A stretch of 62,482 nucleotides of DNA from contig JBIOIY010000010.1 of the NCBI GenBank assembly GCA_044450345.1, positions 1 to 62,482 of the forward strand, given 5' to 3'. Made by a program: the position numbers and the translations under genes. Shown one piece after another: positions 941 through 19,946 of the stretch (its first letter is position 1; each line of letters opens with the position of its first letter). The notes beneath the pieces are model-generated. The model did no database searches and was not told the DNA's origin. It worked only from the letters and a program-made list of their open reading frames with translations. The DNA comes from Thermodesulfovibrionales bacterium. GTDB taxonomy: Bacteria > Nitrospirota > Thermodesulfovibrionia > Thermodesulfovibrionales > UBA6898.

Positions 941-963
941 GACTTTACGTTTTAATAGAGTTT

Positions 964-3450: not shown

Positions 3451-3478
3451 TCCTTACTAATAAACCCATCTGCACCTG

Positions 3479-4498
3479 CTACATCTCCTTCCAATATAGA
3501 ACTGAGTTGCCTTGAAGCACGCTTTCAATGATGCGCTTAATGCCGCCGGACTCGGCGGTCGCAACGACATGAAATGCGGTGCCGCTATATACTGCGTGTC
3601 CTGCCCCAAAGCCCACGCTGATGTCGGGGACCGCCTGTAGTGATGTCAAAGGTCTGTAGCTTATAATCCTTTCAGCCATATCCTCCGATGTATTTTCGGC
3701 AAGCGACATCAGCACCGGCACGTCTGCAGTGTTGACATTGATGCTAAAATTATTGTCGCCACTGCCGTATATTGTAACATAGGGCAGTAACTTGTCATAA
3801 CTCTCCCTGTCGATTCCGGGTATCAGGAGAAGTTCATCAACGCTATCGAGAAGTGCGTTCTTCGGCTGTATACTTGCGGCGTTCTGCGGCCTGCGGTCAG
3901 TGGAGGCATTGATCCAATAGGTGACCTTATTGGCGATATCCGGATCGAGATTAAGATTCCTGACGCGATTGAGATTTCTGATAAGATTGACGAAAAATGC
4001 TTGCCCCTCCGGGTTCCTCAGCGAATTCAAATTGAACTTCGCATTTTCATCCTCAATCCTGAGGGTTATCGTGCCGTCGAGATCGCCGAAGGGGATCTTC
4101 TGGCTCATCTCAAAGGCAGCCCTGGTTTTATACTGTTCAAGCATATTGCTGGTGATGAGCTTGGAAGCCAGTCTTGTCGCGGATTTTGCGGTGATGGAAA
4201 GCTTCTGAGAGGTTTGCCAGTTGTGAAGGGCATTTGTGTTTACGTATACGCCATAAGCAAACTCCACGACCATAGCTGTGATCAGCGCGACGATCATCAA
4301 GACGAGGACAAGGGCCATGCCGCTGCGATCGGTGAAAGGGGAGAGACTAAGACCCGTTTGTTTGTCATTCCGGCTTGTCGGGAATCTTTCTTCCGGAAGG
4401 ATTCCCGACCTGCCTACCGGACAGGCAGGCGCGCTTCGCTTGCGGGAATGACAAATACGTTTGGTCATACTACGGTACCTGTTCACCTTTTTTCTCAT
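3479..4498 (-). CDS. gspK: T2SS minor pseudopilin GspK with a 60-aa repeat-expanded leader
   Basis: SG|MALVLVL prepilin site (no E5, typical of GspK), DENAKFNLN, ELLLIPGI and INVNTA motifs. Start placed at the ATG at 4498 overlapping the gspJ TGA, not at 4630. Confidence 0.9.
   Translation of the reverse strand: MRKKVNRYRSMTKRICHSRKRSAPACPVGRSGILPEERFPTSRNDKQTGLSLSPFTDRSGMALVLVLMIVALITAMVVEFAYGVYVNTNALHNWQTSQKLSITAKSATRLASKLITSNMLEQYKTRAAFEMSQKIPFGDLDGTITLRIEDENAKFNLNSLRNPEGQAFFVNLIRNLNRVRNLNLDPDIANKVTYWINASTDRRPQNAASIQPKNALLDSVDELLLIPGIDRESYDKLLPYVTIYGSGDNNFSINVNTADVPVLMSLAENTSEDMAERIISYRPLTSLQAVPDISVGFGAGHAVYSGTAFHVVATAESGGIKRIIESVLQGNSVLYWKEM
4364..4452. repeat. Family A palindromic repeat inside the gspK leader, with a nested 21-bp palindrome at 4409-4429
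   Basis: GTCATTCCGGCTTGTCGGGAATC...GATTCCCGA[CCTGCCTACCGGACAGGCAGG]CGCGCTTCGCTTGCGGGAATGAC. Confidence 0.9.
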
Positions 4499-5100
4499 AT
4501 CGTATTGCCTATCTTCCGCCTGACCGTATCGAAAAAGCTGACCGGCCTGTCTTTGATCTTTGCGGTGATGGTGATCCTGATTTCGAGGGGTGGCTGCTTC
4601 GTCTCGGAGGTGTCCCATGTCTTCACCCATTTACTGCCGTCATTTACTTCGACTGAAAAAGATTCGAGCCCCTCGATCAGCTCTTCGCCCTTTGTAGTAT
4701 TGTCCGGTTTATAGGCACTATCCATTTTTTTAAAAAGTGTCAAGACCCCGTCTTTATCCTCGACATAATAAGAGATCATCACGATGCCGTAAGAAAGAGG
4801 GGAAAAGGCGGTAAAGGTGAACCGCGACGCCTGTTTGCCGTAAAAGTCCTTGTCTTCCACCTTCACAAGAGAACTCATGTTGCTGGACTTGTAGAGAATA
4901 GACTCGCCTTCCCTGGTCATAACGTCAATGGCCGTCCTGCATTCCTGGAGCTTCAGAAGCGATTCATCAAGCCCCGTCATGGCCTTGTGGGAAAGAAAGA
5001 AGGAGCCGTAAATAGCAGAGAGGATGATCGAAAAAAGGACCATTGCGATCAAGAGTTCGAGGAGGGTGAAGCCTTTCTCATCTCTGCAGGTCCTTTTCAT
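4495..5100 (-). CDS. gspJ: T2SS minor pseudopilin GspJ
   Basis: KG|FTLLELL N-methylation motif with a short 10-aa leader; C-terminal WVKTWD...PLEIRITI pattern. Confidence 0.9.
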   Translation of the reverse strand: MKRTCRDEKGFTLLELLIAMVLFSIILSAIYGSFFLSHKAMTGLDESLLKLQECRTAIDVMTREGESILYKSSNMSSLVKVEDKDFYGKQASRFTFTAFSPLSYGIVMISYYVEDKDGVLTLFKKMDSAYKPDNTTKGEELIEGLESFSVEVNDGSKWVKTWDTSETKQPPLEIRITITAKIKDRPVSFFDTVRRKIGNTI

Positions 5101-5516
5101 TTTGTCTTCCCGAGAAGTTTCGGCTTCTCGATAAGTTCGCTGAACTTCACATTTTCTTTCCCATTAACGACGGTGACTGAAAATTCAATAATACCCGGAT
5201 AGACAGAGTCCTTTACCTCGGTAGTGTAATGATATCGGGTGTAAGGATCGGGGAAATCGCCACTTGCAGACGCCGGACCCTTTTCAATCTCGATAAGCTT
5301 GCTCTTGGCGAGCATCGTCGCTATTGTGACAGTTTCATGTCTTTCGGCAATGGTGAGATGATAATTGAGTGAATAGAGAAGGGTGATGAGAAGGCCTCCC
5401 ACGATGGCGAGGGCCAGCATGACCTCAAGAAGGGTAAACCCTTCCTCTGTGAGACGTGAAACGTGAGACCTGCCTGCCGGACAGGCAGGCCTGAAACGTG
5501 GAGAGTCTGTTCTCAT
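5097..5516 (-). CDS. gspI: T2SS minor pseudopilin GspI with a 26-aa repeat-containing leader
   Basis: EG|FTLLEVMLALAI motif; ATGA overlap with the gspH stop fixes the start. Confidence 0.9.
   Translation of the reverse strand: MRTDSPRFRPACPAGRSHVSRLTEEGFTLLEVMLALAIVGGLLITLLYSLNYHLTIAERHETVTIATMLAKSKLIEIEKGPASASGDFPDPYTRYHYTTEVKDSVYPGIIEFSVTVVNGKENVKFSELIEKPKLLGKTK
5449..5500. repeat. GTGA(G/A)AC heptamer array with an inserted 21-bp palindrome (5469-5489) inside the gspI leader
   Basis: GTGAGAC GTGAAAC GTGAGAC [CTGCCTGCCGGACAGGCAGGC] CTGAAAC GTG. Confidence 0.85.
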
Positions 5517-6097
5517 TCCTGCTTTCCTTCCGCGATCTTTACCCTGCCGCTCACGGAACTTAAGGAAACAGTCATGTCCTTGTCCTCATCCCTGAGATGC
5601 ACTGCCAGGTTCTCCCGGATCCCGAGAGGTCCGAAGAATACCGTAACCTCTCCCTCTCTGATGTTGCCTTTAGAGGTCAGCGTAAGCGAGGCGAGGCTCT
5701 TCAGCCTTTCGGTCTTTTCACCGTCCGGACCCTGCCATGACAAGACGCCGTCGGGAAGGCTGAACTTCAGGGAATATATGTTCTTTGTCGCAACCGCATT
5801 ATCGTTGAGATACCTCAGGAGCGAGGCTGTTTTCCTCGCCTCTGCCTTTATCTTGTTGCCTGTGCCGAAAAAAGCAGGAACGACCAGCATCGCAAGCATG
5901 GAGATGATGAAGACCACTACGGCCAGCTCAAGAAGGGTAAACCCTGCGTTCCCGGAAGCCCGCATCGTGGCTAATTTGGGTTCGGACGGACCGACATTTT
6001 CTGAGCCTGTCATTCCCGCTTGTCGGGAATCCTTCTTTCGGATCTCGGAAAGATTGCGGACAAGCCGCAATGACAGCTCTTTGAGGCCGATGTCCAT
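5513..6097 (-). CDS. gspH: T2SS minor pseudopilin GspH (start at 6097 or alternatively 5965)
   Basis: AG|FTLLELAVV motif and C-terminal SSVSGRVKI; lies between gspG and gspI. Confidence 0.85.
   Translation of the reverse strand: MDIGLKELSLRLVRNLSEIRKKDSRQAGMTGSENVGPSEPKLATMRASGNAGFTLLELAVVVFIISMLAMLVVPAFFGTGNKIKAEARKTASLLRYLNDNAVATKNIYSLKFSLPDGVLSWQGPDGEKTERLKSLASLTLTSKGNIREGEVTVFFGPLGIRENLAVHLRDEDKDMTVSLSSVSGRVKIAEGKQE
6009..6074. repeat. Family A palindromic repeat (66 bp), in-frame within the extended gspH leader
   Basis: GTCATTCCCGCTTGTCGGGAATC...GATTGCGGACAAGCCGCAATGAC. Confidence 0.9.
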
Positions 6098-6160
6098 TTT
6101 ATTTTGTACACCTGTGCAGAGGGTGAACTCTGATCGTATTTTCCAGCCTCTGCTTACATG

Positions 6161-6616
6161 TTACTGCATGTCCCAACTTTTAATGTCCGCGTCTTTGCCT
6201 TCCCCGCCCTCTTTGCCGTCTCCGCCGTAGCTAAGGATATCGAAGTCTCCATGGACTCCGGGCGATACGTACATATAAGGGTTACCCCAGGGGTCAAGGG
6301 GGATCTTCTTCTGTTCGAGATATCCGCCCTCTCTGTATTTACCCGGGACTTGTCCCGTCGCAGGTTTTTCGATCAACGATTCGAGGCCCTGTTCAGTGGT
6401 AGGATAAAAACCGTTGTCGATCTTGAAGAGCTTGAGGGCGGTCTCGAAGTTTTTTATCTGGATTTTGGCGTCCGCTATCTTTGCATCGTCAGTCCGGCCC
6501 ATGATCTTCGGCGCGACGATCGCTACGAGGAGGCTCAGGATAAAGACTACGACTATTATTTCAAGAAGGGTGAAACCGGCCCGTGTGGACATTTTACCCG
6601 TAGTAATGCGTTTCAT
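6161..6616 (-). CDS. gspG: T2SS major pseudopilin GspG
   Basis: AG|FTLLEIIVV, DNGFYPTTEQGL, DPWGNPY and DILSYGGDGKEGGEGKDADI motifs. Confidence 0.97.
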   Translation of the reverse strand: MKRITTGKMSTRAGFTLLEIIVVVFILSLLVAIVAPKIMGRTDDAKIADAKIQIKNFETALKLFKIDNGFYPTTEQGLESLIEKPATGQVPGKYREGGYLEQKKIPLDPWGNPYMYVSPGVHGDFDILSYGGDGKEGGEGKDADIKSWDMQ

Positions 6617-6685
6617 GTTTCCTCCGTATTCAGTGACTCCTGCATAACTGACGATCTACGCAATTTCCCACTAATCCGTTGATCT

Positions 6686-6743
6686 GTCACTCGCGCTTGT
6701 CGGGAGTCCCTCTGAAGAAAGATTCCGGGCAAGCCGGAATGAC
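6686..6743. repeat. Family A palindromic repeat between gspF and gspG
   Basis: GTCACTCGCGCTTGTCGGGAGTC...GATTCCGGGCAAGCCGGAATGAC. Confidence 0.85.
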
Positions 6744-6819
6744 AGAAATAGGACGTTAGTGAGACTGAATCAACAAGAACTAGTATACAATATTCTTTTC
6801 ACTTTATAGAAAGTAGAGC

Positions 6820-7995
6820 TTATTTCACGAGTTGGTTCAACTGGAACATCGGCAGCAGCACGGCAAGCACGATAAACCCGACGACAATCCCCATGAGCAG
6901 GATCATAGAGGGTTCGAGCAACGCAAGCGCCTTCTGCACCCTCCGCTCGAAATCTTCTTCGTATGAATCGGCGGTCTTGCCTAACACTTCCACGAGAGAT
7001 CCGCTTTTTTCGCCCGTGGCGATCAACTGCAGAAGCACCGGCGGAAAACCTTCGAGCGAATGGGAAAGGCGAGCGCCTTCTGCCACTCCTTTTGCCGCCT
7101 GCCTGATCCTCTCCTCGATGACGATGTTGCCGGTCGATTTTGCGGAGAGTTCAAGCGATTTGAGCATCGGAAGTCCGCCTCCGAGGAGAAAACCGAGGGT
7201 CCTTGCGAACCTCCCGAAATAGAGACTCTGAAGGACATTGCCCGGGAGTTGTAGTTTCAACGCATCGAGATAACGGCCGTGTCTTTCGCGCAATCTCTTC
7301 ATCGCTGCGACCAATGCGACCGCCAGGATTATGAGAAGCCACCAGTAATTTACGAAGAGGTTGCTTATCTTGATAAGCACGACCGTAATGAAGGGCAGGG
7401 CGCTCTTGCTGTTTTCAAATATCTTCACGATCTTGGGAACGACGAAGGTGAAGAGGAAGGACATGACGACAAAGCCCACAGAGGCCATAAAAACCGGGTA
7501 GATCATTGCGGCGCGGAGCTTAGACCGTATCGACGCCTGTTTTTCGAGGAAGTCCGCGACCCTTATCAGCACCCTGTCGAGTGTCCCGCTCTGTTCTCCG
7601 GCCGCGACCATATTGATATAAAATTCAGGGAACAACTTAGGATGCGCTTCGAGCGCCCGGGATAGACTTGCGCCCGCAGCAACGTTCTCCCTTATCCCGA
7701 CTAATACGCCCTTCCAGAAGCCTCTGTTCTCATCGGAAAGGGACCGGAGCGCGTCGATCAAGGGGACACCCGAGGAGAGGAGTGTCGAAAGCTGTCTTGT
7801 GATGTAAGGGAGAAGCGTCGCGTCGTATTTCTTCGAGAGCCATCTGTTTTCTTTGTGGTGGAATGCGCCTACGTCTTTAGGGTATATGCCCCGGGCCTTG
7901 ATGGTCGCGATAGCGTCCTGGATACCGTCGGCCTCCAGGGTCCCCGCGGCCTGGGACCCGTCGGTCTTATATCCCTTATAATAGAAGATCGGCAT
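6820..7995 (-). CDS. gspF: T2SS inner-membrane platform protein GspF
   Basis: TRQLSTLLSSGVPL, AGEQSGTLD, MIYP and LLEP motifs; two T2SSF domains. Confidence 0.97.
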   Translation of the reverse strand: MPIFYYKGYKTDGSQAAGTLEADGIQDAIATIKARGIYPKDVGAFHHKENRWLSKKYDATLLPYITRQLSTLLSSGVPLIDALRSLSDENRGFWKGVLVGIRENVAAGASLSRALEAHPKLFPEFYINMVAAGEQSGTLDRVLIRVADFLEKQASIRSKLRAAMIYPVFMASVGFVVMSFLFTFVVPKIVKIFENSKSALPFITVVLIKISNLFVNYWWLLIILAVALVAAMKRLRERHGRYLDALKLQLPGNVLQSLYFGRFARTLGFLLGGGLPMLKSLELSAKSTGNIVIEERIRQAAKGVAEGARLSHSLEGFPPVLLQLIATGEKSGSLVEVLGKTADSYEEDFERRVQKALALLEPSMILLMGIVVGFIVLAVLLPMFQLNQLVK

Positions 7996-8009
7996 TTTTC
8001 AATACTACG

Positions 8010-9539
8010 TCAGCCTTCGACGAGGTCTTTCTGCGTTACCCTCAGGACTTCTTCTACCGTAGTTATCCCCTTCAATACCTTTTCGAAGCCATCGTTTCTC
8101 AACGTCTTCATCCCGCCGGAAACGGCCGCACTCTTAATGCTCTGCGAGTCGATCTTGTCGGAAATCATCTGCCGTGTCGAATCGGTTATGATCAGCGTTT
8201 CAAAGATCGCGGTCCTTCCGAGATATCCCTTTCCCTGGCATTTATCGCAGCCCCTGCCTCGATATAAGGTAAAGGCGCCCCCACGAGGAGCATTTTCGAA
8301 ATAAGACCTCTCGATCTCTGAAGGGGTATAGGGTTCTTTACAATGAGGACAGATGACCCTCACCAACCTCTGTGCCAGGACCGCCATCAGAGACGAGGCA
8401 ACGAGGAAGGGCTCGACCCCCATGTCTATGAGCCTCACGATCGCGGAGGGCGCATCGTTCGTGTGAAGGGTGCTCAGCACGAGATGGCCGGTGAGAGACG
8501 CCTGGATAGCGATCTCGGCTGTTTCTACGTCCCTTATCTCTCCCACCATTATGACGTCGGGGTCCTGCCTGAGTATCGACCTGAGGCCAGATGCGAAGGT
8601 CAAGCCGATCTTCGGATTTACATGGATCTGCCCGACACCTTTCAACTGGTATTCGACCGGGTCCTCGACTGTGATGATGTTCTTCTCTTCGGTATGGACC
8701 CTGTTGAGTGCCGCATAAAGGGTAGTCGACTTGCCGCTTCCTGTGGGGCCTGTAACGAGTATGATGCCGTTCGTCCTCTTAAGGAGTTCTTCGAGACGCT
8801 TCTCGTCGGTTTCGTCCAGACCTACCTCCCAGAGCCCTATCAGGCCCTGTTTCCTGTCCAGGAGCCTGAGGACGGCGCGCTCCCCGAAGCTCGTGGGGAT
8901 CACCGACACCCTGATATCGATGTCCCGGCCGCCGATGAGGAGCCTTATCCTTCCGTCCTGCGGCAGCCTCTTCTCTGCAATATCGAGGTTCGACATGATC
9001 TTAACGCGGCTTATGAGTGCGTCCTGGATTATTTTTGGAGGAGTCAGCACACGGTGGAGTATCCCGTCGACCCTCATCCTCACGTCGAGTTCTTTTTCAT
9101 AGGGCTCGATATGGATATCGCTCGCCCGTTCCTTCACCGCCTGCTGGAGTATGGCGTTCAGGAGCCGGATGATCGGCGCATCCTCGGTAAGTTCCAGGAT
9201 GTCCTTCGGTTTTTCGAACTCTGTTGCAACGGACGAAAGGTCTTCGCCCGTGATATTGTCCATCACGTCCTCTGCCGATGAGCCGACCTGACCGTAGAAC
9301 CTGTTGATCGCATCTATGACCACCCCCGCCGAGGCACTGAGCGGCATCGGGGAAAGGCCGAAATGCCGCGACAATTCCCTGAGGGCGAGGACCCCTCTTT
9401 CGTCCGCGACGGCCGCTATCAGATGCCCGTTTTCCCTTCTGAGCGGCATGAGCATATTGGCCTTTGCATAAGAATGGGGGACTTCCTTGATGAGGGGATG
9501 CTCTACATCTTCGTCGTGAATGACCGTGATGGTTTCCAT
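8010..9539 (-). CDS. gspE: T2SS ATPase GspE
   Basis: ASDIHIEP, Walker A GPTGSGKS, LRQDPDVIMVGEIRD, TGHLVLSTLH and a tetracysteine motif. Confidence 0.98.
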   Translation of the reverse strand: METITVIHDEDVEHPLIKEVPHSYAKANMLMPLRRENGHLIAAVADERGVLALRELSRHFGLSPMPLSASAGVVIDAINRFYGQVGSSAEDVMDNITGEDLSSVATEFEKPKDILELTEDAPIIRLLNAILQQAVKERASDIHIEPYEKELDVRMRVDGILHRVLTPPKIIQDALISRVKIMSNLDIAEKRLPQDGRIRLLIGGRDIDIRVSVIPTSFGERAVLRLLDRKQGLIGLWEVGLDETDEKRLEELLKRTNGIILVTGPTGSGKSTTLYAALNRVHTEEKNIITVEDPVEYQLKGVGQIHVNPKIGLTFASGLRSILRQDPDVIMVGEIRDVETAEIAIQASLTGHLVLSTLHTNDAPSAIVRLIDMGVEPFLVASSLMAVLAQRLVRVICPHCKEPYTPSEIERSYFENAPRGGAFTLYRGRGCDKCQGKGYLGRTAIFETLIITDSTRQMISDKIDSQSIKSAAVSGGMKTLRNDGFEKVLKGITTVEEVLRVTQKDLVEG

Positions 9540-9545
9540 CTTCCG

Positions 9546-11762
9546 CTACTTTATCGTAACGATGTAATTGGGCTCCGCGTACTCGACCTCAGGCAGGTCC
9601 GAGAATTCCTTTACGGCGTCTTCTACGGACTGTTTCTCCTTCAACCTAAGGAGATACACCCGAATGTTATCCGTATACTTTATTACTTTTGCGCCTTTTT
9701 GGGAGATGATCGAACGGACCTTTTCCTCCGGGACGTTTTCTTTGAACTTCACCAAAAGCTCGCCTGAAACGAACCGATTGTTGGCCACGGCAAACTCCTT
9801 TTGTTTGTCCCTTGTAATTTCAGCGAGTCTGTCGGCTTCCTTGATGATATGAGGGTTTAGGAAGACGATCAGGTTTGTTTTATTCTTCGTTGTGTTTTTC
9901 GTTTTAAACAGCCAGCCCAGGAGGGGGATATCACCGAGGACCGGCATCTTTGTCGTCGTTTCCTCGTCGTTTTCCTGCATCAGCCCGCCGATGACGACGG
10001 TCTGGTTGTCCTTCACTACGACCGATGTCTTTGTGGAGCGCTTTGTGATGGTGGGGCCGACGCTGACGGTGAGCGCATCGGACTGGTTCTTCACCTGTGA
10101 AATCTCTTGATATATGTCGAGCTTGACATGATCTCCCTCGGTGATCTGAGGCGTGATCTTTAATATGACACCGACATCCTGCCTCACAATGGAATTGACA
10201 ATCCCCGAGACTGCAGTGTTGCTCGTGCTACTCGCGGCAACACCTAAGCCTGCAGTCGTCTGGCTCTGGGATATAAAGGGCACGTTCTCGCCGACCAGGA
10301 TTTCAGCCTCCTTGTTGTCCGAGGTCAGTATCTGGGGAGTTGAAAGTATATTCACTGAGTCTTTGAAATCGTTCAGACTGAATAAAACGGCGTAGCCCGG
10401 AATCTGGAGTGTCTGCTGGGTAGGCGTGCCGCTGGAGTCGACCGTCGTAATAGGCACTTTAAGGAAGTTTCCCAGCCCTCCCATGGTCGCGCCCTGAAGC
10501 CCCTGCAAGATATTCTGTAATGCCGTTTGGTCTATCGTACCGAACCCGCCTATCGCGACGGGTGAGCCGCCTTTTGTCGCCGTCGCCCTCCATTGGGTGC
10601 CGAGGTTCCTCAACTTGTCCATCGAGGCCTCGATGATCATCGCCTCGACGTAGACCTGCCTTCTCCGTTTGTCGAGTTGCCTGATTATCTGGGACAGGTT
10701 TTGATAATCGGCAGGCGATGCGACAACAACCAGGGCATTCGACGCCTTGTCGGAGGTAATCGTGATACCCCCTGCAGCCTCGAAGGGCGCCGCCGCACCT
10801 GGTGCGCCTGCAGGTTGTTTAGATCCCTGCATGCCCCTGATCATTCCCTCAAGGACTTTCCCGAGCTCGGTTGCGTCCGCGTTTTCGAGGAAGAAGACGT
10901 TTATCCTTCCCTGTGCCTCAGGGGCAGGGGTATCGATAAGTGAGATGAGGGCCTTCATGGATTCCCTTCCGCCTCTATCGCCAAAGAGGATGACTGCGTT
11001 AAGCCTCTGGTCCGGGACGGCAGATGCTATTTCTATCCCTGTCTGTTGTCCTGGAACGGCCCTTGTCTTGGCCTTCCCCATCCCGTCATTGAGGATCTTT
11101 GAGACCGTGTCGGCGCTCGAGTATTTGAGGAGGATGACCTCGGGCATTTCGGCCGCCGACGGTTTGTCGATAAGCTCCACGAGGGACAGGATCTTTTCCA
11201 CGTTCAGTCCCGAATCGATCACAAGGAGTAGGTTGCCGGGGCCGAATATCGAAATATGGCCGTCCTTGGATACAAGCGGCTGGAGAAATCGGAGCGCTTC
11301 GTCGGCCGAGACGTACCTGAAAGAAAGGAGCCTTGCGACATAGCTTTCGTTTATGGGCATGCCCTCTGTAGAGATCTGCAGACCCTGCTGTTTTGCCTCG
11401 ATTGCGGGGATTATCTTGTACACGTCGACCCCCGAGGGGACAACGGTGAACCCTTTCAGCTCCAGCACCGAAGTAAAGAGGCTGTATGCGTCGTCTATCG
11501 AGAGTTTGGAAGGGGCGATGATCGTTATCTTTCCTTTGACCTTGTCGTCGAAGATGAAATTCTTGCCTGTGATCTCACTGATGAACTTTGCGATGACCGG
11601 CAGTTCTACGTCGACAAAATTGAACGTCACGTTGTTCGATTTCTTTGTCTCCGCAGAGGACCCGGCAAGGACGGTCTGCCCGCCGACGGACAGGGTGAGC
11701 AGCAAGCAGATGATGGAAATAGACTTACGGCAGGTGGAGGCGAGATTGTCTAATCGTTTCAT
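9546..11762 (-). CDS. gspD: T2SS secretin GspD with a C-terminal subtilase-prodomain-like extension
   Basis: N0-N3 domains and a secretin core (QVYVEAMIIE, ILSTPQIL, KMPVLGDIPLLGWLF). The final ~76 aa read GELLVKFK...PEVEYAEPNY. Confidence 0.95.
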   Translation of the reverse strand: MKRLDNLASTCRKSISIICLLLTLSVGGQTVLAGSSAETKKSNNVTFNFVDVELPVIAKFISEITGKNFIFDDKVKGKITIIAPSKLSIDDAYSLFTSVLELKGFTVVPSGVDVYKIIPAIEAKQQGLQISTEGMPINESYVARLLSFRYVSADEALRFLQPLVSKDGHISIFGPGNLLLVIDSGLNVEKILSLVELIDKPSAAEMPEVILLKYSSADTVSKILNDGMGKAKTRAVPGQQTGIEIASAVPDQRLNAVILFGDRGGRESMKALISLIDTPAPEAQGRINVFFLENADATELGKVLEGMIRGMQGSKQPAGAPGAAAPFEAAGGITITSDKASNALVVVASPADYQNLSQIIRQLDKRRRQVYVEAMIIEASMDKLRNLGTQWRATATKGGSPVAIGGFGTIDQTALQNILQGLQGATMGGLGNFLKVPITTVDSSGTPTQQTLQIPGYAVLFSLNDFKDSVNILSTPQILTSDNKEAEILVGENVPFISQSQTTAGLGVAASSTSNTAVSGIVNSIVRQDVGVILKITPQITEGDHVKLDIYQEISQVKNQSDALTVSVGPTITKRSTKTSVVVKDNQTVVIGGLMQENDEETTTKMPVLGDIPLLGWLFKTKNTTKNKTNLIVFLNPHIIKEADRLAEITRDKQKEFAVANNRFVSGELLVKFKENVPEEKVRSIISQKGAKVIKYTDNIRVYLLRLKEKQSVEDAVKEFSDLPEVEYAEPNYIVTIK

Positions 11763-11768
11763 AGTCTA

Positions 11769-11800
11769 AGTATATTATTAAAAATGCCGTCTTAGGTCAA
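11769..11800 (-). promoter_or_regulatory. Putative internal sigma70 promoter for gspD (leaderless-type)
   Basis: TTGACC (11800-11795) is 17 nt from TAATAT. An overlapping TATACT lies 6 nt before the ATG, and there is no SD. Confidence 0.5.
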
Positions 11801-11818
11801 CACGACAGAGGGGAATGA

Positions 11819-12688
11819 TCATCTTATCTGGTAGGTCATCGTCATTCTCGCACCATTTCTTATAATATCGAGCTGGGCCCTGTCGATCCCCTTAAGGGCC
11901 GTGATCGCCTGGAGTGCGGTATCCGGGCTGGAAATACTATATTCGTTTATCCTGAGAAGCACGTCTCCGTTTTGGAGGCCGAGGCTCTGATAAAGGCCCC
12001 CCGGCTTCAACTCGCGGAGCACGAACCCCTGTTGTTTGCCCTCGGCCATGTTCGGTATGAACCTGGCATCGGTCATAAGCTGGTCCGGTTTTTCCAGTGC
12101 CTGCTGTATACGCTGCTGGTCGATGAGGTAGGTTGACTCGCCCGTCCTCTTCCCGAAGCTCGCAGCTGCCGGGCCGCCTGCCTTTACCTCCTTTATATCG
12201 GTCATGTCGGAGAACGGGACTTTAATGTCTCTGCCGTTTGACATTATTACGACGCTGTCTTTGTCGACTTTTCTGAGCGTTCCGAGACCGAGCACATTGT
12301 CCCCAACCTTGAAGATGTCCTGCTTTCCGGTCTTGTCCAGAAAAATGGCGTAGCTCCTGTCTTTCCTTCCCGCTATGGTGCCGATCAGGGCAAGGTCCGA
12401 CTGAGATATTGAAGTCCCTGATGAAGCTGAAAGGGGTTTGAGCTCCCCCGCCGGAAAACCGAAGGGATTGTTCTTCATCAGAGAGGCGTAGTCCTGGAAC
12501 TGCCGTTTCACCGGGCCCCGGACCTTTTTCTCCGACTTTGCCGGCGCCCCCTTCGGCGAGAGGGTCAGGGAAAGGAGGTCTCTTGTGAAAAGAAGGGTCG
12601 CAAGGAGGAGTAGTATCCCGACCATGCCATTGATAGCCTGAATGGCACCTTTGTTCTTCATGACGCGGGCCAGGCCTTTCAGTTCCAT
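11819..12688 (-). CDS. gspC: T2SS protein GspC with a PDZ domain (start 12688 or 12661)
   Basis: TM, HR domain (LIGTIAG...FKVGD) and PDZ (LGLQNGDVLLRIN). The track's start at 12706 falls inside the promoter. Confidence 0.9.
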   Translation of the reverse strand: MELKGLARVMKNKGAIQAINGMVGILLLLATLLFTRDLLSLTLSPKGAPAKSEKKVRGPVKRQFQDYASLMKNNPFGFPAGELKPLSASSGTSISQSDLALIGTIAGRKDRSYAIFLDKTGKQDIFKVGDNVLGLGTLRKVDKDSVVIMSNGRDIKVPFSDMTDIKEVKAGGPAAASFGKRTGESTYLIDQQRIQQALEKPDQLMTDARFIPNMAEGKQQGFVLRELKPGGLYQSLGLQNGDVLLRINEYSISSPDTALQAITALKGIDRAQLDIIRNGARMTMTYQIR

Positions 12689-12696
12689 CGACTTTG

Positions 12697-12725
12697 AACA
12701 TAACAAAAATAGCGGAAGTTGTCAA
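12697..12725 (-). promoter_or_regulatory. sigma70 promoter of the gsp operon
   Basis: TTGACA (12725-12720), a 17-nt spacer, then extended -10 TG-T-TATGTT (12702-12697). Confidence 0.7.
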
Positions 12726-13108
12726 AAAATGATATCTTGACACGCCCTATAGACTGTGATAGTTTTTTGTTAAAAGTCGCCGTCTGTAAAGATTTTTTCG
12801 GCAGAGAAGGGCATAACGGTCTGCGCCATATGGCGTACGGACGATTTGAGCCACTGGGTCTTTTTCATGGTGCCTATTTAAGTTAAGGGTCTCATGATCC
12901 GATCTTTGATATGAAAAGGCCGTTGCTTCGTAATTCTTATGGGCATCGGAATACTTTGTCCGGTATCTGCCATGCCGGCTAATTGGAAAGAAATATTTTG
13001 CCGAAAGGAGGGAGATGGCGTTATGAGTGTCTCTCTTAGGGAAATGACATGACCGGTAACTTGCTTATTTGCAGTTAAACATTTATTGGGATTCGAAAGG
13101 AGGGCTAA

Positions 13109-14371
13109 ATGCGGTGTATCGTGCGAAAGTTGTTTATTGCATCTGTTGTCTTTTTGTCTTTTCTTCTCGTCTCAACCGCAGTTCATGCTGACCCGTTCAA
13201 ATTCTCGTCTTCCACACAATTTTTGTGGGGTGACGATCTGCTCGGAGATCGCTCGGCTGTCATCGCACAGTACCTTAGGTTCACTTTTGCCCCCGAGGGG
13301 AAGCCGTACTCTGTTACCGGCTACGGGCGGCTCTGGAAGGACCTGGGCAGTCCCGAGGTGAGAAGCGACGACTTCGAGACAAGGGTTTATTATCTCTATC
13401 TCGATTATGCGCTCTTGCCCAATGTCTCCACAAGGATAGGGAGGCAGTTCACGAATTTCACTGCGGGCACATCTATCATGGACGGCATCAGGCTGGATGT
13501 GAATAAAATCGGACCCGTGGGTGTGACTCTCGCCGGAGGAAGGGATGTCACCTTCAGCCTCGACGGAGAATACTCAAGGAACGGAAATAATTTTTTTGGG
13601 ATCGACATTCACCTGCAGGACGTGAAATCGACCCAGCTGGGATTCAGCTATATCAGAAGATACGACGAGTCAGACCTTGCGAGGGAAGAACTCGGCATGA
13701 ATTTCAGATATTTTCTTAAGTTTGCCAGCCCCTATGCGGAAGTGAAGTATGACCTGCTTTCGAAGGTCTTCGACGATGCGACGATCGGCGTCGATGTCTT
13801 CCCGCTGAGTAACCTGAAGGTGAAGGCGGAGTTCTATCATTCCTATCCGACCTTCGATTCTACGTCTATTTACAGCGTCTTTGCGGTCGACAAGTTCCGG
13901 GAATATCTGATACTCGCAGAGTACAATCTGGCGATCCCGGTGAGCGTCTTCGCTTCCTACAAACGCCAGACGTACGAGGAGGATACGAACGCCGATGTGT
14001 ACACGATCGGTGCAAGGGCGTATCCCAATGAGAAACTCAACCTGAATGCCTCGTTCGATTACAGGAGAGGCTACAGCGGCTATGCCTTTTTCCCCGCCAC
14101 CGGGGTGACGGAAACTGACGGAAAATTGTACGGGTTCGAACTTTCCGGAGATTACAAGCTCAGGAAAGAGATCATTGTCTTTGCGGGCATCCAGTACGAT
14201 ACGTACAACAGGCCGGACATCTCCGGGAACAACTATGCGCGGCGTTACTGGGCAGGCGGCCGCTGGATTGCCACAAAAAAGCTTTCTGTCACGGCACGGC
14301 TCGAGGACGACGACAACCCGAATTTTTCTCACAGAATTTTGGGCCGGGTTGCCCTGGACTGGAATCTATAA
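13109..14371 (+). CDS. Outer-membrane beta-barrel porin of a porin-cytochrome complex (OmbB/OmbC-like)
   Basis: Signal peptide (AVHA-D), alternating aromatic beta strands, RIGRQF motif and terminal LDWNL. Directly precedes multiheme cytochromes. Confidence 0.85.
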   Translation: MRCIVRKLFIASVVFLSFLLVSTAVHADPFKFSSSTQFLWGDDLLGDRSAVIAQYLRFTFAPEGKPYSVTGYGRLWKDLGSPEVRSDDFETRVYYLYLDYALLPNVSTRIGRQFTNFTAGTSIMDGIRLDVNKIGPVGVTLAGGRDVTFSLDGEYSRNGNNFFGIDIHLQDVKSTQLGFSYIRRYDESDLAREELGMNFRYFLKFASPYAEVKYDLLSKVFDDATIGVDVFPLSNLKVKAEFYHSYPTFDSTSIYSVFAVDKFREYLILAEYNLAIPVSVFASYKRQTYEEDTNADVYTIGARAYPNEKLNLNASFDYRRGYSGYAFFPATGVTETDGKLYGFELSGDYKLRKEIIVFAGIQYDTYNRPDISGNNYARRYWAGGRWIATKKLSVTARLEDDDNPNFSHRILGRVALDWNL

Positions 14372-14386
14372 AGGAAAGGAGGGAAA

Positions 14387-15163
14387 ATGCTAAAAAAATT
14401 AATCATAATTATGACGATACTTTTTATATGCGGTTTTGCTATTACGGCGTGGTCTCTCACCTCGCATAAGGACTATTCCTCGATGGAGATCTCGGCATGC
14501 AACAGCTGCCATCAGTCGAACGGCGTGGCCCTGAATCACGGCCCCATGTGGGATAAAGAGCACAGACTCTATGCCAACAAGAAGCCTAATAATTGTCAGG
14601 ACTGCCATCAGCAGTCGTTCTGTCTCGATTGTCACCAAGGAGGCGGAATCGACGCCAACCTGCATTCATCGCAATCGGGACCCGATTACATGCCCAAGTC
14701 GCACCGGACCGATTTCAGGGAAATACACCCCATAAAGGCTAAGGAAAATCCGACTAGCTGCTATCGTTGCCATGACGCAAAGAGGTTCTGCCTGGAATGC
14801 CACAACAGGTTCAGCCCCAGCCAGCTTGCGATGGCTTCTCACAGGAGACAGTTCAGCGACATTAACCTCAAGTCGGTTGGTCCGAACCACACAATATTTA
14901 GCACTGAACAGTGTCCGACGTGCCATCCGAACAGCCTCGTCCCGACTCATCAGTGGTCTGCCGACCACGCGAGGGAGGCCAGGCGGAACCTGTCCACATG
15001 CCAGACATGCCATCCCGAGGGTGACGTATGCATGAAATGCCACAGCGCAGCCACGGGTTTGAAGGTGAACCCTCATCCGAGGAATTGGAGCGGCATTAAA
15101 GGCCGTCTCGGGAGTGCGAGCAACAACAGGTCGTGCTTAAAGTGCCATATCACGGTGCCGTAA
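14387..15163 (+). CDS. Periplasmic nonaheme c-type cytochrome (OmaB/OmaC-like)
   Basis: Signal peptide and nine CxxCH motifs (CNSCH, CQDCH, CLDCH, CYRCH, CLECH, CPTCH, CQTCH, CMKCH, CLKCH) in 258 aa. Confidence 0.92.
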   Translation: MLKKLIIIMTILFICGFAITAWSLTSHKDYSSMEISACNSCHQSNGVALNHGPMWDKEHRLYANKKPNNCQDCHQQSFCLDCHQGGGIDANLHSSQSGPDYMPKSHRTDFREIHPIKAKENPTSCYRCHDAKRFCLECHNRFSPSQLAMASHRRQFSDINLKSVGPNHTIFSTEQCPTCHPNSLVPTHQWSADHAREARRNLSTCQTCHPEGDVCMKCHSAATGLKVNPHPRNWSGIKGRLGSASNNRSCLKCHITVP

Positions 15164-15196
15164 GTGATTGCGAAAACTAAAGGAGGTAGAGATAAA

Positions 15197-17461
15197 ATGC
15201 CACGAACATCCAAAAAGGAGGGCAAAATGATTAAGTCGTCTCGAATCGTTACCGGCTCACTATTTCTTCTTATGGCATTATTTGCGTTGAACGGTTGCGG
15301 AAGCGGGCACCATGAAGGAGTGGAGAGCCCCCTCGGGTCTGCGACAAAGGTAGGGTCTGAAAGCTGTACTAACACGTGTCACGCCGACACAAAAGACATC
15401 ACGGGCAATAAGATTGCCGCGGTTTGGGCTGCTACCACCCATACCACGTCAGGCGGCGTGCAGTGCGAGGATTGTCATGGACCGGCCAGCCTGCACTGGG
15501 GCGTCGGCCCGATACTGTTTCCGGACCCTCAGGCTGCGCAGTGTAACGTTTGCCACGGCAAGACAGGCTTTGACGCTACAGCCCATGCGAACGCGCATAT
15601 CCCCGGCGGCTTCTTCGGCCCCGACAGTTTCTTCTTCCAGGGGGACGCCGGCACGGGTCCTGCCGATATCAGAGGCGTTCCTGAATTCCTGCCTGACGGC
15701 ATCACCCCTGTGACAAAGGCTCAGCATATCCAGGAATGCTCCGCATGCCACAATCCGAACGAAAGGTTCACTTTTAATATCGACGGGACTCTTACGAAGC
15801 CCGATCCGAACAACATGCCGAACCCTGTCGTCTCATGCGCTTCCTGTCACGATGCACACCAGCCTGAGCAAAGGGTTGCTATAGCACAGCGCGCCTCTGT
15901 GCAGGTTCCGATCTTCCGGAAGTTCTTTGTCAATGCCACCGGAGAGCAAAGCTTCGTTGCAGACCCATCAACAGGGAAAGAAAGTGCGACGGCCACCTCT
16001 TCACAACTTGCGGCCTCGCTATTTCAGCCTAACGGCGCGGTCCAGCTGAACGGCAGCGTGGACATGACTAAGGTCATCGGGACGAATAACGAACTGAACA
16101 TCCAGCGCCTCTGTGCCTCATGTCACACTGTGGGGAAATACTTATACAGTCAGACTGCGACACATCAGAACGACACCTATACGCAGTGGGCAAACTCAGC
16201 CCACGGCACGATGAGCGATCCCGCCTTTGCCGAGTTTTCGGCAAACCCACCTGCCTATATCAATCCCTTTACCGGGACCCCGTATGCTGCGGGTGGCCAC
16301 CAGAGTCTATGGCCCTATGATATGGCTTTTAGTGGAGGCGCCTCGTTCAACGGGCCGGGCAAGGTTGGCGCAACCGCAAGCACATCCCAGAATGCAGGGT
16401 TTGGAGGAACCAATGACAATTTTGCCTGCTACAGATGCCATAACGGGGTCGCTTCTATAGCATTCCAGCTGAATATCCAGGGGACGCCTGCCGCCCCCGT
16501 GATCTTCGGTGATGAAGCCGTGGTGTGTATCACCTGCCATGACCCTCACCAGAACTACCCCGGACAGACCTTGAACGTCCGGCAGCCGGTGATGATGACC
16601 AATTATTCGTCAACTTCCATTACTATCCAGGGTAATGTCTTCCTTGACAATACCCCTGTCCCGTTGGATAAGACAGGAAACGGCACGATCTGCATTTTCT
16701 GTCATCAGGGTCGGGAGAGTGGTCTTACCCTTTATGCCACGAAACTTGCCGCCGGCAAGAAGATCACTGGAAATTTCTTCAATCCTCATTATCTCGGCAC
16801 TGCAGCAATGATCTGGGGCGTCAATGCCTATGAATACGCGGGTCAATTATACAGCGCCAATGTGGCCCATCAGGGTGCAAACTGCCCGACCTGTCATATG
16901 AACAATCCGACAGCGGACAATCTTAATGGTGGCCATACCTGGACCCCGAATGTAGCGTCCTGCAATGTCTCATCCTGTCATGGAAGTTTTGGTGCGGTGA
17001 GCGCAAAAGCCGCCTCCCAGAGTCCCGACGTCGCGACGTACAGGGCCAGTTTCGACACGAACAACTATACGGGCGATGCCAACGGGGCTTCCCTGTCTAT
17101 AGCCAATTCGATACGGGTGCTCCAGCAGAAGGTGATCGCGGTGCTAAATACAAAGGGGATATTCTACAACGACCTGGTGTATCCTTACTTCTTTAGCGAT
17201 GCGGCATCAACGACAGCCTTTACTGCCTGGACACCTGCAACTTACAAGGCGGCCTTCAATATCTCCTTTGCTGTGAAGGGGCTCCCTTCCGCGGCAACCT
17301 CACAGGCCAACGTGCCGAATAATTCTGCAGCGGTGCACGACTATAAGTACATCATTCAGGTTCTGCAGGACGGATATGCTGACCTGACAGGCGCTCCTCT
17401 TGCGGGCGCTTTCAGACCTGCAGGGACACGGCCCGCGACTGTCTACGGCCCGGGTCAGTAA
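15197..17461 (+). CDS. Outer-membrane lipoprotein multiheme cytochrome, OmcB/OmcC-like, copy 1 (start 15197 or 15227)
   Basis: Lipobox LNGC; 9 CxxCH plus CTNTCH and CNVSSCH. The N-terminal pattern VG...C..CH...CEDCHG...H.GVGPI resembles Geobacter OmcB as I recall it. Confidence 0.88.
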   Translation: MPRTSKKEGKMIKSSRIVTGSLFLLMALFALNGCGSGHHEGVESPLGSATKVGSESCTNTCHADTKDITGNKIAAVWAATTHTTSGGVQCEDCHGPASLHWGVGPILFPDPQAAQCNVCHGKTGFDATAHANAHIPGGFFGPDSFFFQGDAGTGPADIRGVPEFLPDGITPVTKAQHIQECSACHNPNERFTFNIDGTLTKPDPNNMPNPVVSCASCHDAHQPEQRVAIAQRASVQVPIFRKFFVNATGEQSFVADPSTGKESATATSSQLAASLFQPNGAVQLNGSVDMTKVIGTNNELNIQRLCASCHTVGKYLYSQTATHQNDTYTQWANSAHGTMSDPAFAEFSANPPAYINPFTGTPYAAGGHQSLWPYDMAFSGGASFNGPGKVGATASTSQNAGFGGTNDNFACYRCHNGVASIAFQLNIQGTPAAPVIFGDEAVVCITCHDPHQNYPGQTLNVRQPVMMTNYSSTSITIQGNVFLDNTPVPLDKTGNGTICIFCHQGRESGLTLYATKLAAGKKITGNFFNPHYLGTAAMIWGVNAYEYAGQLYSANVAHQGANCPTCHMNNPTADNLNGGHTWTPNVASCNVSSCHGSFGAVSAKAASQSPDVATYRASFDTNNYTGDANGASLSIANSIRVLQQKVIAVLNTKGIFYNDLVYPYFFSDAASTTAFTAWTPATYKAAFNISFAVKGLPSAATSQANVPNNSAAVHDYKYIIQVLQDGYADLTGAPLAGAFRPAGTRPATVYGPGQ

Positions 17462-17486
17462 TAACGTAGTAGTGTAATTTCGTAAC

Positions 17487-17519
17487 GGGGCCCCGGAGTA
17501 ATCCGGGGCCCTCTTTTTT
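17487..17519 (+). terminator. Intrinsic terminator after cytochrome 1
   Basis: GGGGCCCCGGA-GTAA-TCCGGGGCCCT followed by a T run. Confidence 0.85.
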
Positions 17520-17521
17520 CG

Positions 17522-17548
17522 GTGCGCCCGGCATGGGCGCATGCTTGG
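17522..17548 (+). mobile_element. 5' stub of a group IIC intron
   Basis: GTGCGCCCGGCATGGGCGCA matches the class C group II intron 5' end. It lies right after an intrinsic terminator, the known IIC target. No RT ORF or domain V was seen. Confidence 0.65.
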
Positions 17549-17723
17549 TCTGAGTCGTGTCTTAATGCACCGGCGCCGGACCCGGACCCAAAAAACCCAG
17601 CTTAATTTTTTTCTACCCCTTTTTTGCAGAATATTTATAATATATGCCTGGACTTGTTTTGGATTATGAAAGGTAGATTCTGAAGAGGTCACATAATGGA
17701 TAACTTTTTTATGAGGAGGGAAT

Positions 17724-19946
17724 ATGCGTAAACTGTATCGTTTACTCGGATTAGGGCTATTGGTCGGCTTATCTCTTCTGACCGGCTGCGGCGGAGGAGG
17801 AGGGGGCCAGCCTTCGACTGCGACGAGGGTCGGCTCTGCCACGTGCACAAATACATGCCATGCGTTCACCAAGGATATCACCGGCACGCAGATAGCTGTC
17901 GCCTGGGCCAATACTACTCATACCACCGACGGCAAGGTCCAGTGTGAGGACTGTCACGGCGCGGGAAGCCTGCACAGGGGAGTGGGAACTATCCCTTATC
18001 CAAACCCGCATGCTGCCCAGTGCGAAGTTTGTCATACGGATAAAAAAGGGTTTGACAGCACGTTCCATGCGAACTCGAATCCTTATAACGGTACAAACCC
18101 CAGTTCTTTTACAGGACCTGACAAGTTCTTCTTCCAGGGAGATGCCTTGAACAGCGGTACCGCCGAGATAATGAGTAAACCTGAATTCCTTCCCGACGGC
18201 ATTACTCCGGTAACGCATGCGCAGCATATCGAGGAATGTTCCCGCTGCCACAACCCGAACCAGCGTTTTGAATACAGCTATGCTGATGGGAGCGGGCCTC
18301 TGATTATGCCTGACCCTAATAACATGCCGGACCCGCCGAATATCACCTGTGCGGGCTGTCATGACGCTCATCAGCCTGAAACCAAGGTACCTATCGCTCA
18401 AAGAAACGACCCGGTGGCTTATCCAGTCTACCGGAAATTTTTTGTCAACCCCACCGGCGAGCAAAACGATAACGTCCCTGGGACGCAGCTTGCCGCCTCG
18501 ATCTACCAGCCCAACGGCGCTGTCCAGCAGGACGGATCGGTGGACATATCGAAGGTCGTCGGAACGAATAACGAGCTTAATATAGAGCTTCTCTGTGCCG
18601 CGTGCCATACGAAAGGGAAATATAAATACAGTCAGCTATCGACACATCAGAACGATGTTTATACAGAATGGAAGAACTCCGGACATGGGAATCGGAATGC
18701 CCCGGCGTTTGCCGAGTTTTCAGCCAACCCGCCCGCTTACACCAATCCTAATACCGGGATCCCGTACGCTGCGGGCGGTCACCAGAGTCTATGGCCCTAT
18801 GATATGGCTTTTAGTGGAGGCGCCTCGTTCAACGGGCCGGGCAAGGTAGGTGCAACCGCAAATACATCCCGGAATGCGGGGTTTGGCGGAACTAATGACA
18901 ATTATCCCTGCTACAGATGTCATAACGGGGTTGGATCTATCGCATTCCAGATGAATATCCAGGGGACGCCTTCCGCGCCGGTGGTTTTTGGCGATGAGCC
19001 TGTGGTATGTATTACCTGCCATGACCCGCACCAGGACTACCCCGGACAATCCAAGAACGTCCGGCAGCCGGTGATGATGACCAATTATTCGACAAGTTCC
19101 ATCACGATCCAGGGAAATGTCTTCCTCGACAAAACTCCCGTGCCGCTCGCCCAGACCGGCAACGGCACTATCTGCATCTTCTGTCATCAGGGCAGGGAGA
19201 GTGGCCTGACACTTTATGCCACGAAACTTGCCGCAGGCAAGACGATTACTGGAAATTTCTTCAATCCTCACTATCTCGGCACTGCAGCAATGCTCTGGGG
19301 AGTCAATGCCTATGAGTACTCGGGTCAGTTTTATAGCGCCAATGCGGCCCATCAGGGTGCAAACTGCCCGACCTGTCATATGAGCAATCCGACAGCAGAC
19401 AACCAAAACGGCGGCCATACGTGGAAACCGAATGTAGCGACCTGCAATGTCTCATCCTGTCACGGAGGAAGTTTAGGAAAGGTGGGCGTTCAAGCAGGTT
19501 CCGCGAGCCCGGATGTGGCAAGCTACAGGGCAAGCTCCGACACGAATAACTATACCGGCGATGCCAACGGGGCTTCGCTGTCTATAGCCGATTCAATCCG
19601 GGTGCTCCAGCAGAAGGTCATCGCAGTACTCCAGACCAAGGGGATCTTCTACAACGACCTGGTGTATCCTTATTTCTTTAGCGATGCGGCATCAACGACG
19701 ACCTTTACTGCCTGGACACCTTCTACGTACAAGGCAGCATTCAACCTCTCTTTTGCAGTGAAGGGACTCCCCTCCGCTGCAACCTCACAGGCCAACGTGC
19801 CGAATAATTCTGCCGCCGTTCATGACTATAAATACATTATCCAGCTCCTGCAGGACGGCCTTGCAGACTTGGGGGTACCTCTTCCCTCGAGTGCCGTCAG
19901 GCCTCTGGGGATACGGCCTGCGACTGTTTACGGCCCGGGTCAGTAA
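17724..19946 (+). CDS. Outer-membrane lipoprotein multiheme cytochrome, OmcB/OmcC-like, copy 2
   Basis: SD GAGGAGGG, lipobox LTGC, 9 CxxCH plus CTNTCH and CNVSSCH. Collinear paralog of copy 1, also ending in RPATVYGPGQ. Confidence 0.9.
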   Translation: MRKLYRLLGLGLLVGLSLLTGCGGGGGGQPSTATRVGSATCTNTCHAFTKDITGTQIAVAWANTTHTTDGKVQCEDCHGAGSLHRGVGTIPYPNPHAAQCEVCHTDKKGFDSTFHANSNPYNGTNPSSFTGPDKFFFQGDALNSGTAEIMSKPEFLPDGITPVTHAQHIEECSRCHNPNQRFEYSYADGSGPLIMPDPNNMPDPPNITCAGCHDAHQPETKVPIAQRNDPVAYPVYRKFFVNPTGEQNDNVPGTQLAASIYQPNGAVQQDGSVDISKVVGTNNELNIELLCAACHTKGKYKYSQLSTHQNDVYTEWKNSGHGNRNAPAFAEFSANPPAYTNPNTGIPYAAGGHQSLWPYDMAFSGGASFNGPGKVGATANTSRNAGFGGTNDNYPCYRCHNGVGSIAFQMNIQGTPSAPVVFGDEPVVCITCHDPHQDYPGQSKNVRQPVMMTNYSTSSITIQGNVFLDKTPVPLAQTGNGTICIFCHQGRESGLTLYATKLAAGKTITGNFFNPHYLGTAAMLWGVNAYEYSGQFYSANAAHQGANCPTCHMSNPTADNQNGGHTWKPNVATCNVSSCHGGSLGKVGVQAGSASPDVASYRASSDTNNYTGDANGASLSIADSIRVLQQKVIAVLQTKGIFYNDLVYPYFFSDAASTTTFTAWTPSTYKAAFNLSFAVKGLPSAATSQANVPNNSAAVHDYKYIIQLLQDGLADLGVPLPSSAVRPLGIRPATVYGPGQ

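Follow-up and report, generated by a model that had tools for sequence, protein, structure and literature searches.

Why should an outer-membrane secretin end in a domain of the kind that, in proteases of the subtilisin type, ordinarily maintains the fold and prevents activity? The question is raised by gspD, the secretin gene of a type II secretion system (T2SS) in a Thermodesulfovibrionales bacterium of the phylum Nitrospirota (GenBank assembly GCA_044450345.1, contig JBIOIY010000010.1), of which positions 1 to 62,482, here called the window, were analysed. To our knowledge, the usual C-terminal element of a secretin is a short S-domain, and pilotins are the only known partners of that domain. 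A preliminary description of the window, made from the sequence without database searches, had proposed that this GspD ends in a domain resembling a subtilase prodomain; the gene coordinates and the last 76 residues that it quoted agree with the open reading frame (ORF) at 9546..11762 on the minus strand, and the proposal itself is borne out by family, model and structure comparison. The tail is genuinely homologous to subtilase propeptides but has been relocated to the C-terminus of a secretin, and together with its relatives it represents a conserved modular fusion in a clade of Nitrospirota in which the fold, the motif and the processed-type end of the chain have been retained. As to its role, we infer, tentatively and with a chance that falls somewhat short of even, that the tail is a secretin-borne module which binds a subtilase, either as inhibitor or as dock.

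The identity of the protein as a T2SS secretin follows the usual domain order. Residues 47-650 match TIGR02517, the NCBIfam equivalog of GspD, with 531 bits against a cut-off of 351, and Pfam places N0 at residues 47-117, followed by three Secretin_N domains (N1-N3) and the C-terminal Secretin domain at 468-641; the gene is co-encoded with gspC, gspE, gspF, gspG and the minor pseudopilin genes in an operon that is complete from C to N. Beyond the core, PF22148 (Fervidolysin_NPro-like, the N-terminal prodomain of fervidolysin) is matched at residues 653-732 with an E-value of 9.3e-20 and 71.2 bits against a cut-off of 21, and since the last 84 residues alone still give an E-value of 8.7e-21, the match lies far above chance. 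No inhibitor family was matched by the tail in the Pfam scan of GspD. The AlphaFold2 model of the tail, computed from an alignment of 68 short relatives (mean pLDDT 91.0, pTM 0.79), has the order beta-alpha-beta-beta-alpha-beta, with a strand at 10-19, a helix at 25-34, strands at 38-43 and 48-52, a second helix at 59-67 and a last strand at 72-79. When this model was compared with the PDB by Foldseek, the propeptide of subtilisin E ranked first (1scj_B, E 4.2e-4, TM 0.66/0.76) and the prosegment of BPN' second (1spb_P, E 6.6e-4, TM 0.67/0.77), followed by pro-subtilisin E, the furin-bound PC1/3 prodomain, fervidolysin (1r6v), the PCSK9 prodomain and the propeptides of Tk-subtilisin. RRM domains, which have the same general topology, are interspersed among the lower matches, and neither a pilotin-like fold nor a secretin domain occurs among the 49 matches listed.

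The chain of GspD also stops where a cleaved propeptide stops. In HMMER alignments, residue 80 of the tail falls on residue 67 of 1scj_B (71 residues long) and on residue 74 of 1spb_P (78 residues long), so that four residues are left on each side and the C-terminus of GspD coincides with the last residue of the propeptide; the E-values of these two alignments are weak (0.046 and 0.24), and the family assignment rests on PF22148 and Foldseek. Among 92 fusions, the EPNY motif is followed by exactly five residues in 53, by six in 11 and by eight in 16. The five-residue class follows the pattern x-[I/L/V]-[K/T]-[I/M/L]-[K/Q/R], and K, Q or R is the final residue in 76 of the 83 fusions with short ends. 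A corresponding spacing is found in precursors of S8 proteases, the subtilase family: of 86 distinct precursors examined, 46 show the pattern, and in 44 of these PND[PT], the opening of the mature enzyme, lies 7-8 residues past EPNY. The S8 protein of locus L019, a 3.6-Mb chromosome record, has EPNY, five further residues and then the VKPND start. In crystal complexes, the end of the cleaved prosegment occupies the substrate cleft as a bound product would, and the prosegment inhibits tightly.

A one-off frameshift or an assembly artefact as the origin of the fusion is ruled out by its recurrence. The survey of GspD homologues that had been proposed in the preliminary description as a check recovered the fusion in 92 protein clusters and 31 genomic loci, and it is present in 112 of the 120 GspDs nearest in their core. 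The clusters come from a protein search scored on GspD residues 645-738 only, which returned 102 proteins, namely 92 secretins with PF22148 (P0001, P0003-P0093) and 10 S8 subtilases with PF22148; those of the 92 secretins that carry an organism name are all assigned to Nitrospirota groups. A second ranking, by the secretin core (residues 400-645), supplied the best 120 proteins, in 112 of which the tail is intact and free of truncations at core identities down to about 70%; one tail-bearing match is labelled Acidobacteriota (P0262). The loci come from a scan of one genome per species with the pattern EVEYAEPN only, by which variants such as EVQYAEPN are missed; among the best 80 of at least 551 confirmed loci, 31 are fusion loci, all with Nitrospirota record titles. 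The tail is conserved, yet less than the pore, its median identity to the window being 0.59 vs 0.73 for the core and exceeding that of the core in only 3 of 81 full-length fusions. In two loci from metagenome-assembled genomes (L020:8011-10252 and L037:6745-10252), the fused gspD, and in L037 also gspC, is split by frame disruptions, for which pseudogenisation or assembly error are possible causes.

The eight GspDs of this core ranking that end without the domain (P0280, P0283, P0284, P0286, P0287, P0288, P0291 and P0300) share about 73-75% core identity, and one of them is labelled Dissulfurispiraceae. The six that were examined are 643-688 residues long and end a few residues past the conserved KQKEF helix; two of the tail-less proteins come from contigs of 87 and 235 kb and are therefore not shortened by contig ends. 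Together with the fusions, these relatives form a natural presence/absence series.

Outside secretins, the domain occurs in S8 proteases and in small proteins of its own. An exhaustive phmmer search with the tail gave 1050 proteins at E ≤1e-3, and the best 150, sorted by pattern and in 74 cases scanned with Pfam, comprise 11 secretin fusions, 33 S8 proteases and 106 others. Most of these others are 100-140 residues long and consist of a hydrophobic N-terminus followed by the domain, with the chain ending 3-10 residues after it; a few are really fragments of secretins or S8 proteases. About 40 of the 106 contain a lipobox as judged by a loose regular expression, a criterion cruder than a proper predictor. 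Four S8 proteases (P0127, P0148, P0163 and P0187) carry an N-terminal prodomain and a second copy at the extreme C-terminus; it is this C-terminal copy that best matches the tail, it ends 5-9 residues past the domain, and it may act as a C-terminal autoinhibitor. The Pfam scan of the 74 proteins also showed giant multi-protease proteins and small proteins with tandem double copies. Some secretin fusions are likewise extended: two tandem prodomain copies are present in P0104 and P0107, and P0104, P0107, P0120, P0123 and L025:8264-10810 have either tandem copies or an extra extension of 190-240 residues, which in P0123 gives a weak, sub-threshold SPOR match (E 3.4e-5, 24.5 bits, no qualifying stretch).

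The constraint on the tail is that of the protease prodomains. The comparison placed 104 non-redundant tails, 105 free-standing copies and 84 N-terminal prodomains of S8 proteases on one HMM, in a set partly biased to EVEYAEPN. Thirteen positions are conserved in the tails (G667, E668, V671, K672, F673, V713, V726, Y728, A729, E730, P731, N732 and Y733), each in at least 88% of the 104 sequences, with E730 at 0.99, P731 at 1.00 and N732 at 0.97; the same 13 positions are conserved, with the same residue, in the free-standing copies and in the S8 prodomains. Only L669, I686 and A691, all hydrophobic, are conserved in the GspD tails alone, and a new conserved surface specific to these tails, as a mark of a changed partner, was not seen in this comparison. 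An HMM of the GspD tails gave a median of 73.8 bits on free-standing copies vs 56.7 on S8 N-terminal prodomains, a difference that is biased in that both sets are best matches to the tail.

The surroundings of the domain repeatedly include S8 protease genes. ORFs in the 80 loci were labelled by phmmer with the Gsp proteins of the window, by an S8 catalytic HMM and, for 29 chosen proteins, by Pfam, and fusion loci with gspC and at least 2 kb of upstream sequence (n=23) were taken as informative. In 10 of these 23 (L010, L015-L020, L023, L030 and L042), an S8 gene is the first same-strand gene of at least 150 codons upstream of gspC; anywhere in the locus, an S8 gene is found in 12 of the 31 fusion loci. 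The usual order is a pilQ-like secretin gene (AMIN), genes for two lipobox proteins (one with Big_1), the S8 gene, gspC and gspD, and the S8 protein usually consists of a lipobox, PF22148, the S8 domain and fn3. This pilQ-to-T2SS cassette is conserved in L019:200-6819 and in the same region of L015, L016, L023, L042 and L048, and encodes a lipobox protein of about 220 residues without Pfam match, the lipobox Big_1 protein and the S8-fn3 protease, which has a lipobox in most loci.

S8 genes also lie near the free-standing copies, of which the best 80 loci contain 26, 19 of them from Nitrospirota by title and the rest scattered. In 20 of the 26, the same strand encodes an S8 catalytic domain no more than 3 kb downstream. 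Among the informative loci, in which the DNA downstream extends for 1 kb or more, the figure is 20 of 24, since fewer than 400 bp follow the copy in two of the six exceptions. T2SS genes are present in 9 of the 26. In Nitrospira loci such as L024, L034 and L065, the pair of free-standing copy and S8 gene lies between gspE and gspC on the opposite strand. At about 9800-12500 in each of L024, L034, L065 and L067, the lipobox free-standing gene overlaps the start of the S8 gene; within these four Nitrospira T2SS loci no secretin gene was detected, and in L034, L065 and L067 the S8 gene is followed by a 167-aa ORF that is Rce1-like by Pfam in L034. At least three separate arrangements can be counted, in Thermodesulfovibrionales, in two Nitrospira paralogue families and in Thermodesulfobacteriota (L026 and L045); the locus counts themselves overstate the number of independent events because the loci are related genomes.

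Where the tail joins the secretin can be read from the full-length model only locally, as this AlphaFold2 monomer is poor overall (mean pLDDT 65.2) and uninformative on docking of the tail to the barrel. In it, helix 643-660 is joined by a linker of three residues to the prodomain fold (664-733), for which the block pLDDT is 82-86. When the last 179 residues were compared with solved structures, GspD chains (6i1x, 5wq7, 6i1y and others) aligned through helix 643-660 and no further. According to Howard et al. (2019; PMC6532946), two helices, alpha-11 and alpha-12, make up the S-domain, and pilotins bind the C-terminal one. Because the alignment to solved GspDs stops after the helix, and given the helix layout in that paper, the GspD of the window retains a counterpart of the first S-domain helix, with the prodomain fold standing at the pilotin-binding part; a complete S-domain with its C-terminal helix is lacking. 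Solved secretins suggest, by analogy, a position of the tail in the periplasm, at the outer wall of the barrel and with one copy per subunit.

From these elements a mechanism can be sketched. The tail takes the place of the part of the S-domain beyond the first helix, and its sheet would pack against the catalytic domain of an S8 protease, with the free C-terminal strand lying in the substrate cleft as in a cleaved propeptide. In this way the tail would dock the protease, or keep it from acting, at the outer rim of the secretin on the periplasmic side. Such an arrangement could be a periplasmic safety catch, or it could let the protease wait there until it is exported, and the free-standing copies upstream of S8 genes, many with a lipobox, would be the same device in unfused form. 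A stronger version, which we regard as possible but doubtful, holds that 15 such propeptide mimics ring the pore and couple the restraint of the protease to its export, and that the tail is the fused form of a widespread and hitherto undescribed class of free-standing, propeptide-like bacterial proteins, many with a lipobox, whose genes lie directly upstream of S8 genes and in Nitrospira inside a T2SS cluster.

The predicted complex is consistent with such binding. The pair folded consisted of the catalytic part of the L019 S8 protein (residues 131-470, 35-row alignment) and the GspD tail of the same locus (residues 677-760, 53-row alignment), and it scored 0.49 (runs 0.50, 0.23 and 0.49) against 0.00 for the best of three controls, a result graded as weak support; the runs share at least 94% of their contacts, and the pLDDT of the partner is at least 78. 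Of 157 solved complexes, 116 attained the pass mark, as did 2 of 215 mismatched pairs; at scores of 0.60 or lower, however, the passes include only 18 of the 157 solved complexes but both of the passing mismatches. The L019 pass may moreover reflect the memory of the model, or the likeness of the pair to solved propeptide-subtilisin complexes. Binding of a subtilase as inhibitor or dock is favoured here because several findings point to a protease: a C-terminus like that of a cleavage product, a protease-contact motif that has been kept, S8 genes near the fusions and near the free-standing copies, and this weak in silico complex.

Several observations weigh against this preference. No S8 gene (PF00082) was found among the 57 ORFs of the window that were scanned, and in L001, L002 and L008, whose tails are nearest to that of the window, divergent porin-cytochrome genes stand in place of the S8 gene. 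The preliminary description had looked to co-occurring S8 proteases without prodomains, and here it does not hold: an N-terminal PF22148 domain is present in each of the 23 S8 proteins scanned that are encoded adjacently on the same strand, and only the convergent S8 protein of L028 showed none, so that a partner devoid of a prodomain is rejected for the neighbours seen and a second prodomain is not obviously needed. The adjacency of S8 genes may also be partly a matter of synteny, because in one genome pilMNOPQ is followed by the S8 cassette but not by a T2SS (L048), while the fused gspD lies on another contig without S8 gene (L071), and the 10 loci in which an S8 gene adjoins gspC come from related genomes and may share one ancestral arrangement. 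The tree of domain copies, which asks whether the GspD tails group with the free-standing copies, has strong support on only 8 of its 132 branches over 72 columns and requires seven label changes for the GspD tails, in part owing to mislabelled fragments. Eight of the 120 nearest GspDs dispense with the tail altogether, and the site of the tail would be outside the channel.

Among other explanations, a role in assembly, in which the tail targets, multimerises or stabilises the secretin as a substitute for a pilotin or as an outer ring of 15 domains, has position on its side: the tail begins three residues past the helix that aligns with the first S-domain helix, where the solved GspDs have the pilotin site (Howard et al. 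2019; PMC6532946), and every subclade retains it, whether or not an S8 gene is its neighbour. The preliminary description had seen no pilotin gene in the operon, and in agreement with this a loose regular expression found no small lipobox ORF in positions 1..13200 of the window. Many T2SSs, however, have no pilotin at all. ExeD is described as pilotin-independent by Howard et al. (2019; PMC6532946). Pilotins are small lipoproteins, whereas the tail is internal to GspD, contains neither a signal peptide nor a lipobox and would be unable to take the lipoprotein sorting route without a lipid anchor; to this are added the absence of pilotin and secretin domains among the listed Foldseek matches, the eight close relatives that do without the domain, and conserved positions that are those of protease prodomains rather than of a surface specific to GspD tails. 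We regard the role in assembly as unlikely, if still worth weighing. Of the three functional ideas put forward in the preliminary description, docking or inhibition of a subtilase is the best supported, and the built-in pilotin, for which the support is positional, is less supported.

A further possibility is that the prodomain fold now serves to bind a partner that is not a protease, such as lipoprotein cargo (the neighbouring cytochromes being candidates), GspC or the cell wall. The neighbours in the subclade of the window, which are lipoprotein multihaem cytochromes and not S8 proteases, would fit this idea, as would the tandem copies of P0104 and P0107 and the sub-threshold match of P0123 to SPOR, a cell-wall-binding domain, both of which fit a periplasmic adaptor. 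Against a new partner stand the retained protease-contact motif and product-like end, the lack of a new conserved patch, and the association of free-standing copies with S8 genes instead of cytochrome genes; we consider such a change of partner improbable, slightly more so than a role in assembly. That the tail is a relic, passively retained and without present function, could be argued from its lower conservation relative to the core and from the existence of tail-less relatives, yet its intact state in nearly all of the nearest GspDs, the 13 strongly conserved positions and the high-confidence model make this very improbable. Restraint or docking of a subtilase accordingly remains the account to be preferred among the four, with the reservations listed above.

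How the tail relates to known systems depends on which of its features is compared. It shares with the N-terminal propeptides of subtilases the family HMM (PF22148), the fold, the EPN motif and the chain end of a cleaved propeptide; those propeptides precede a catalytic domain, whereas the tail lies at the C-terminus of a secretin in a chain in which Pfam finds no PF00082 domain, and binding or inhibition of a protease by the tail is a prediction. MEROPS family I9 includes propeptide-like, free-standing inhibitors of subtilases in fungi and plants. These are propeptide homologues set apart from their protease, and the free-standing bacterial copies described above appear to be of the same sort; in contrast to them, the tail falls under PF22148, the bacterial copies often carry a lipobox and the domain of the window is fused to a secretin, and no bacterial free-standing example of the I9 kind was found in the literature searched. 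With the S-domain and its pilotins (PulS/OutS, AspS/GspS-beta/EpsS), the tail has its place in common, beyond the final strand of the barrel and helix one of the S-domain, but a folded domain of 70 residues replaces the short pilotin-binding helix and its fold is unrelated to that of pilotins. The proposed logic is shared by AprI/Inh, periplasmic inhibitors encoded with the export genes of serralysins, and by Lif, the lipase foldase of T2SS substrates. In both cases one secreted hydrolase is restrained, or helped to fold, by a periplasmic protein with a genetic link to the secretion system; their families, folds and secretion systems are unrelated to those considered here, and none is known to be fused to an outer-membrane channel. 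Full-text literature searches returned no description of a secretin with a prodomain tail or of the bacterial free-standing copies; both domains are known, and it is their combination and position that is new. If the proposal is true, the fusion would equip an outer-membrane channel with a cargo-specific or safety function in a novel manner. The free-standing copies point to a family of small bacterial proteins that has so far gone unrecognised; its members, which often carry a lipobox, resemble ready-cleaved subtilase propeptides and are paired with protease genes. As the hosts are uncultured environmental Nitrospirota with a T2SS beside a porin-cytochrome cluster, the matter also bears on their cell-surface equipment.

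Table 1. Features of the T2SS locus of the window and of the genes divergent from it.
Feature	Position	Strand	Evidence
gspD, T2SS secretin, 738 aa, stop codon included	9546..11762	-	ORF; TIGR02517; Pfam N0, three Secretin_N, Secretin, PF22148
Secretin core domain, residues 468-641	9840..10361	-	PF00263, E 1.6e-48
Helix, residues 643-660, counterpart of the first S-domain helix	9783..9836	-	Full-length AlphaFold2 model; alignment to 6i1x, 5wq7
Subtilase-prodomain-like fold, residues 664-733, EVEYAEPNY at end	9564..9773	-	PF22148; AlphaFold2 pLDDT 91; Foldseek; three-residue linker after the helix
Final five residues IVTIK, product-like C-terminal strand	9549..9563	-	HMMER alignments to 1scj_B, 1spb_P
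T2SS operon gspC-D-E-F-G-H-I-J-K-L-M-N	980..12706	-	Pfam matches per ORF; M and N assignments weak
Divergent porin and three multihaem cytochromes (two with lipobox)	13109..19946	+	Pfam Porin_4, MtrC/MtrF-like; CXXCH counts

The region divergent from the T2SS operon (Table 1) is a porin-cytochrome cluster of the extracellular-electron-transfer kind. It encodes a porin of 420 residues, a 258-aa cytochrome with nine CXXCH motifs and two lipobox cytochromes of 765 and 740 residues, each with nine CXXCH motifs and with MtrC/MtrF-like domains. In Shewanella, surface lipoprotein cytochromes depend on a T2SS, and the divergent porin and cytochromes may, by context only, be candidate cargo of the T2SS of the window. 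Elsewhere in the window, at 39704-40370 on the minus strand, a Gp49-like ORF (PF05973) and an HTH_3 ORF overlap by a few bases and have the look of a HigB/HigA-type toxin-antitoxin pair. Two MoeA-type molybdopterin genes lie on the plus strand at 20043-21296 and 25700-27634; the second is fused to a PBP-like domain and adjoins a RACo-type activator gene at 27594-29120.

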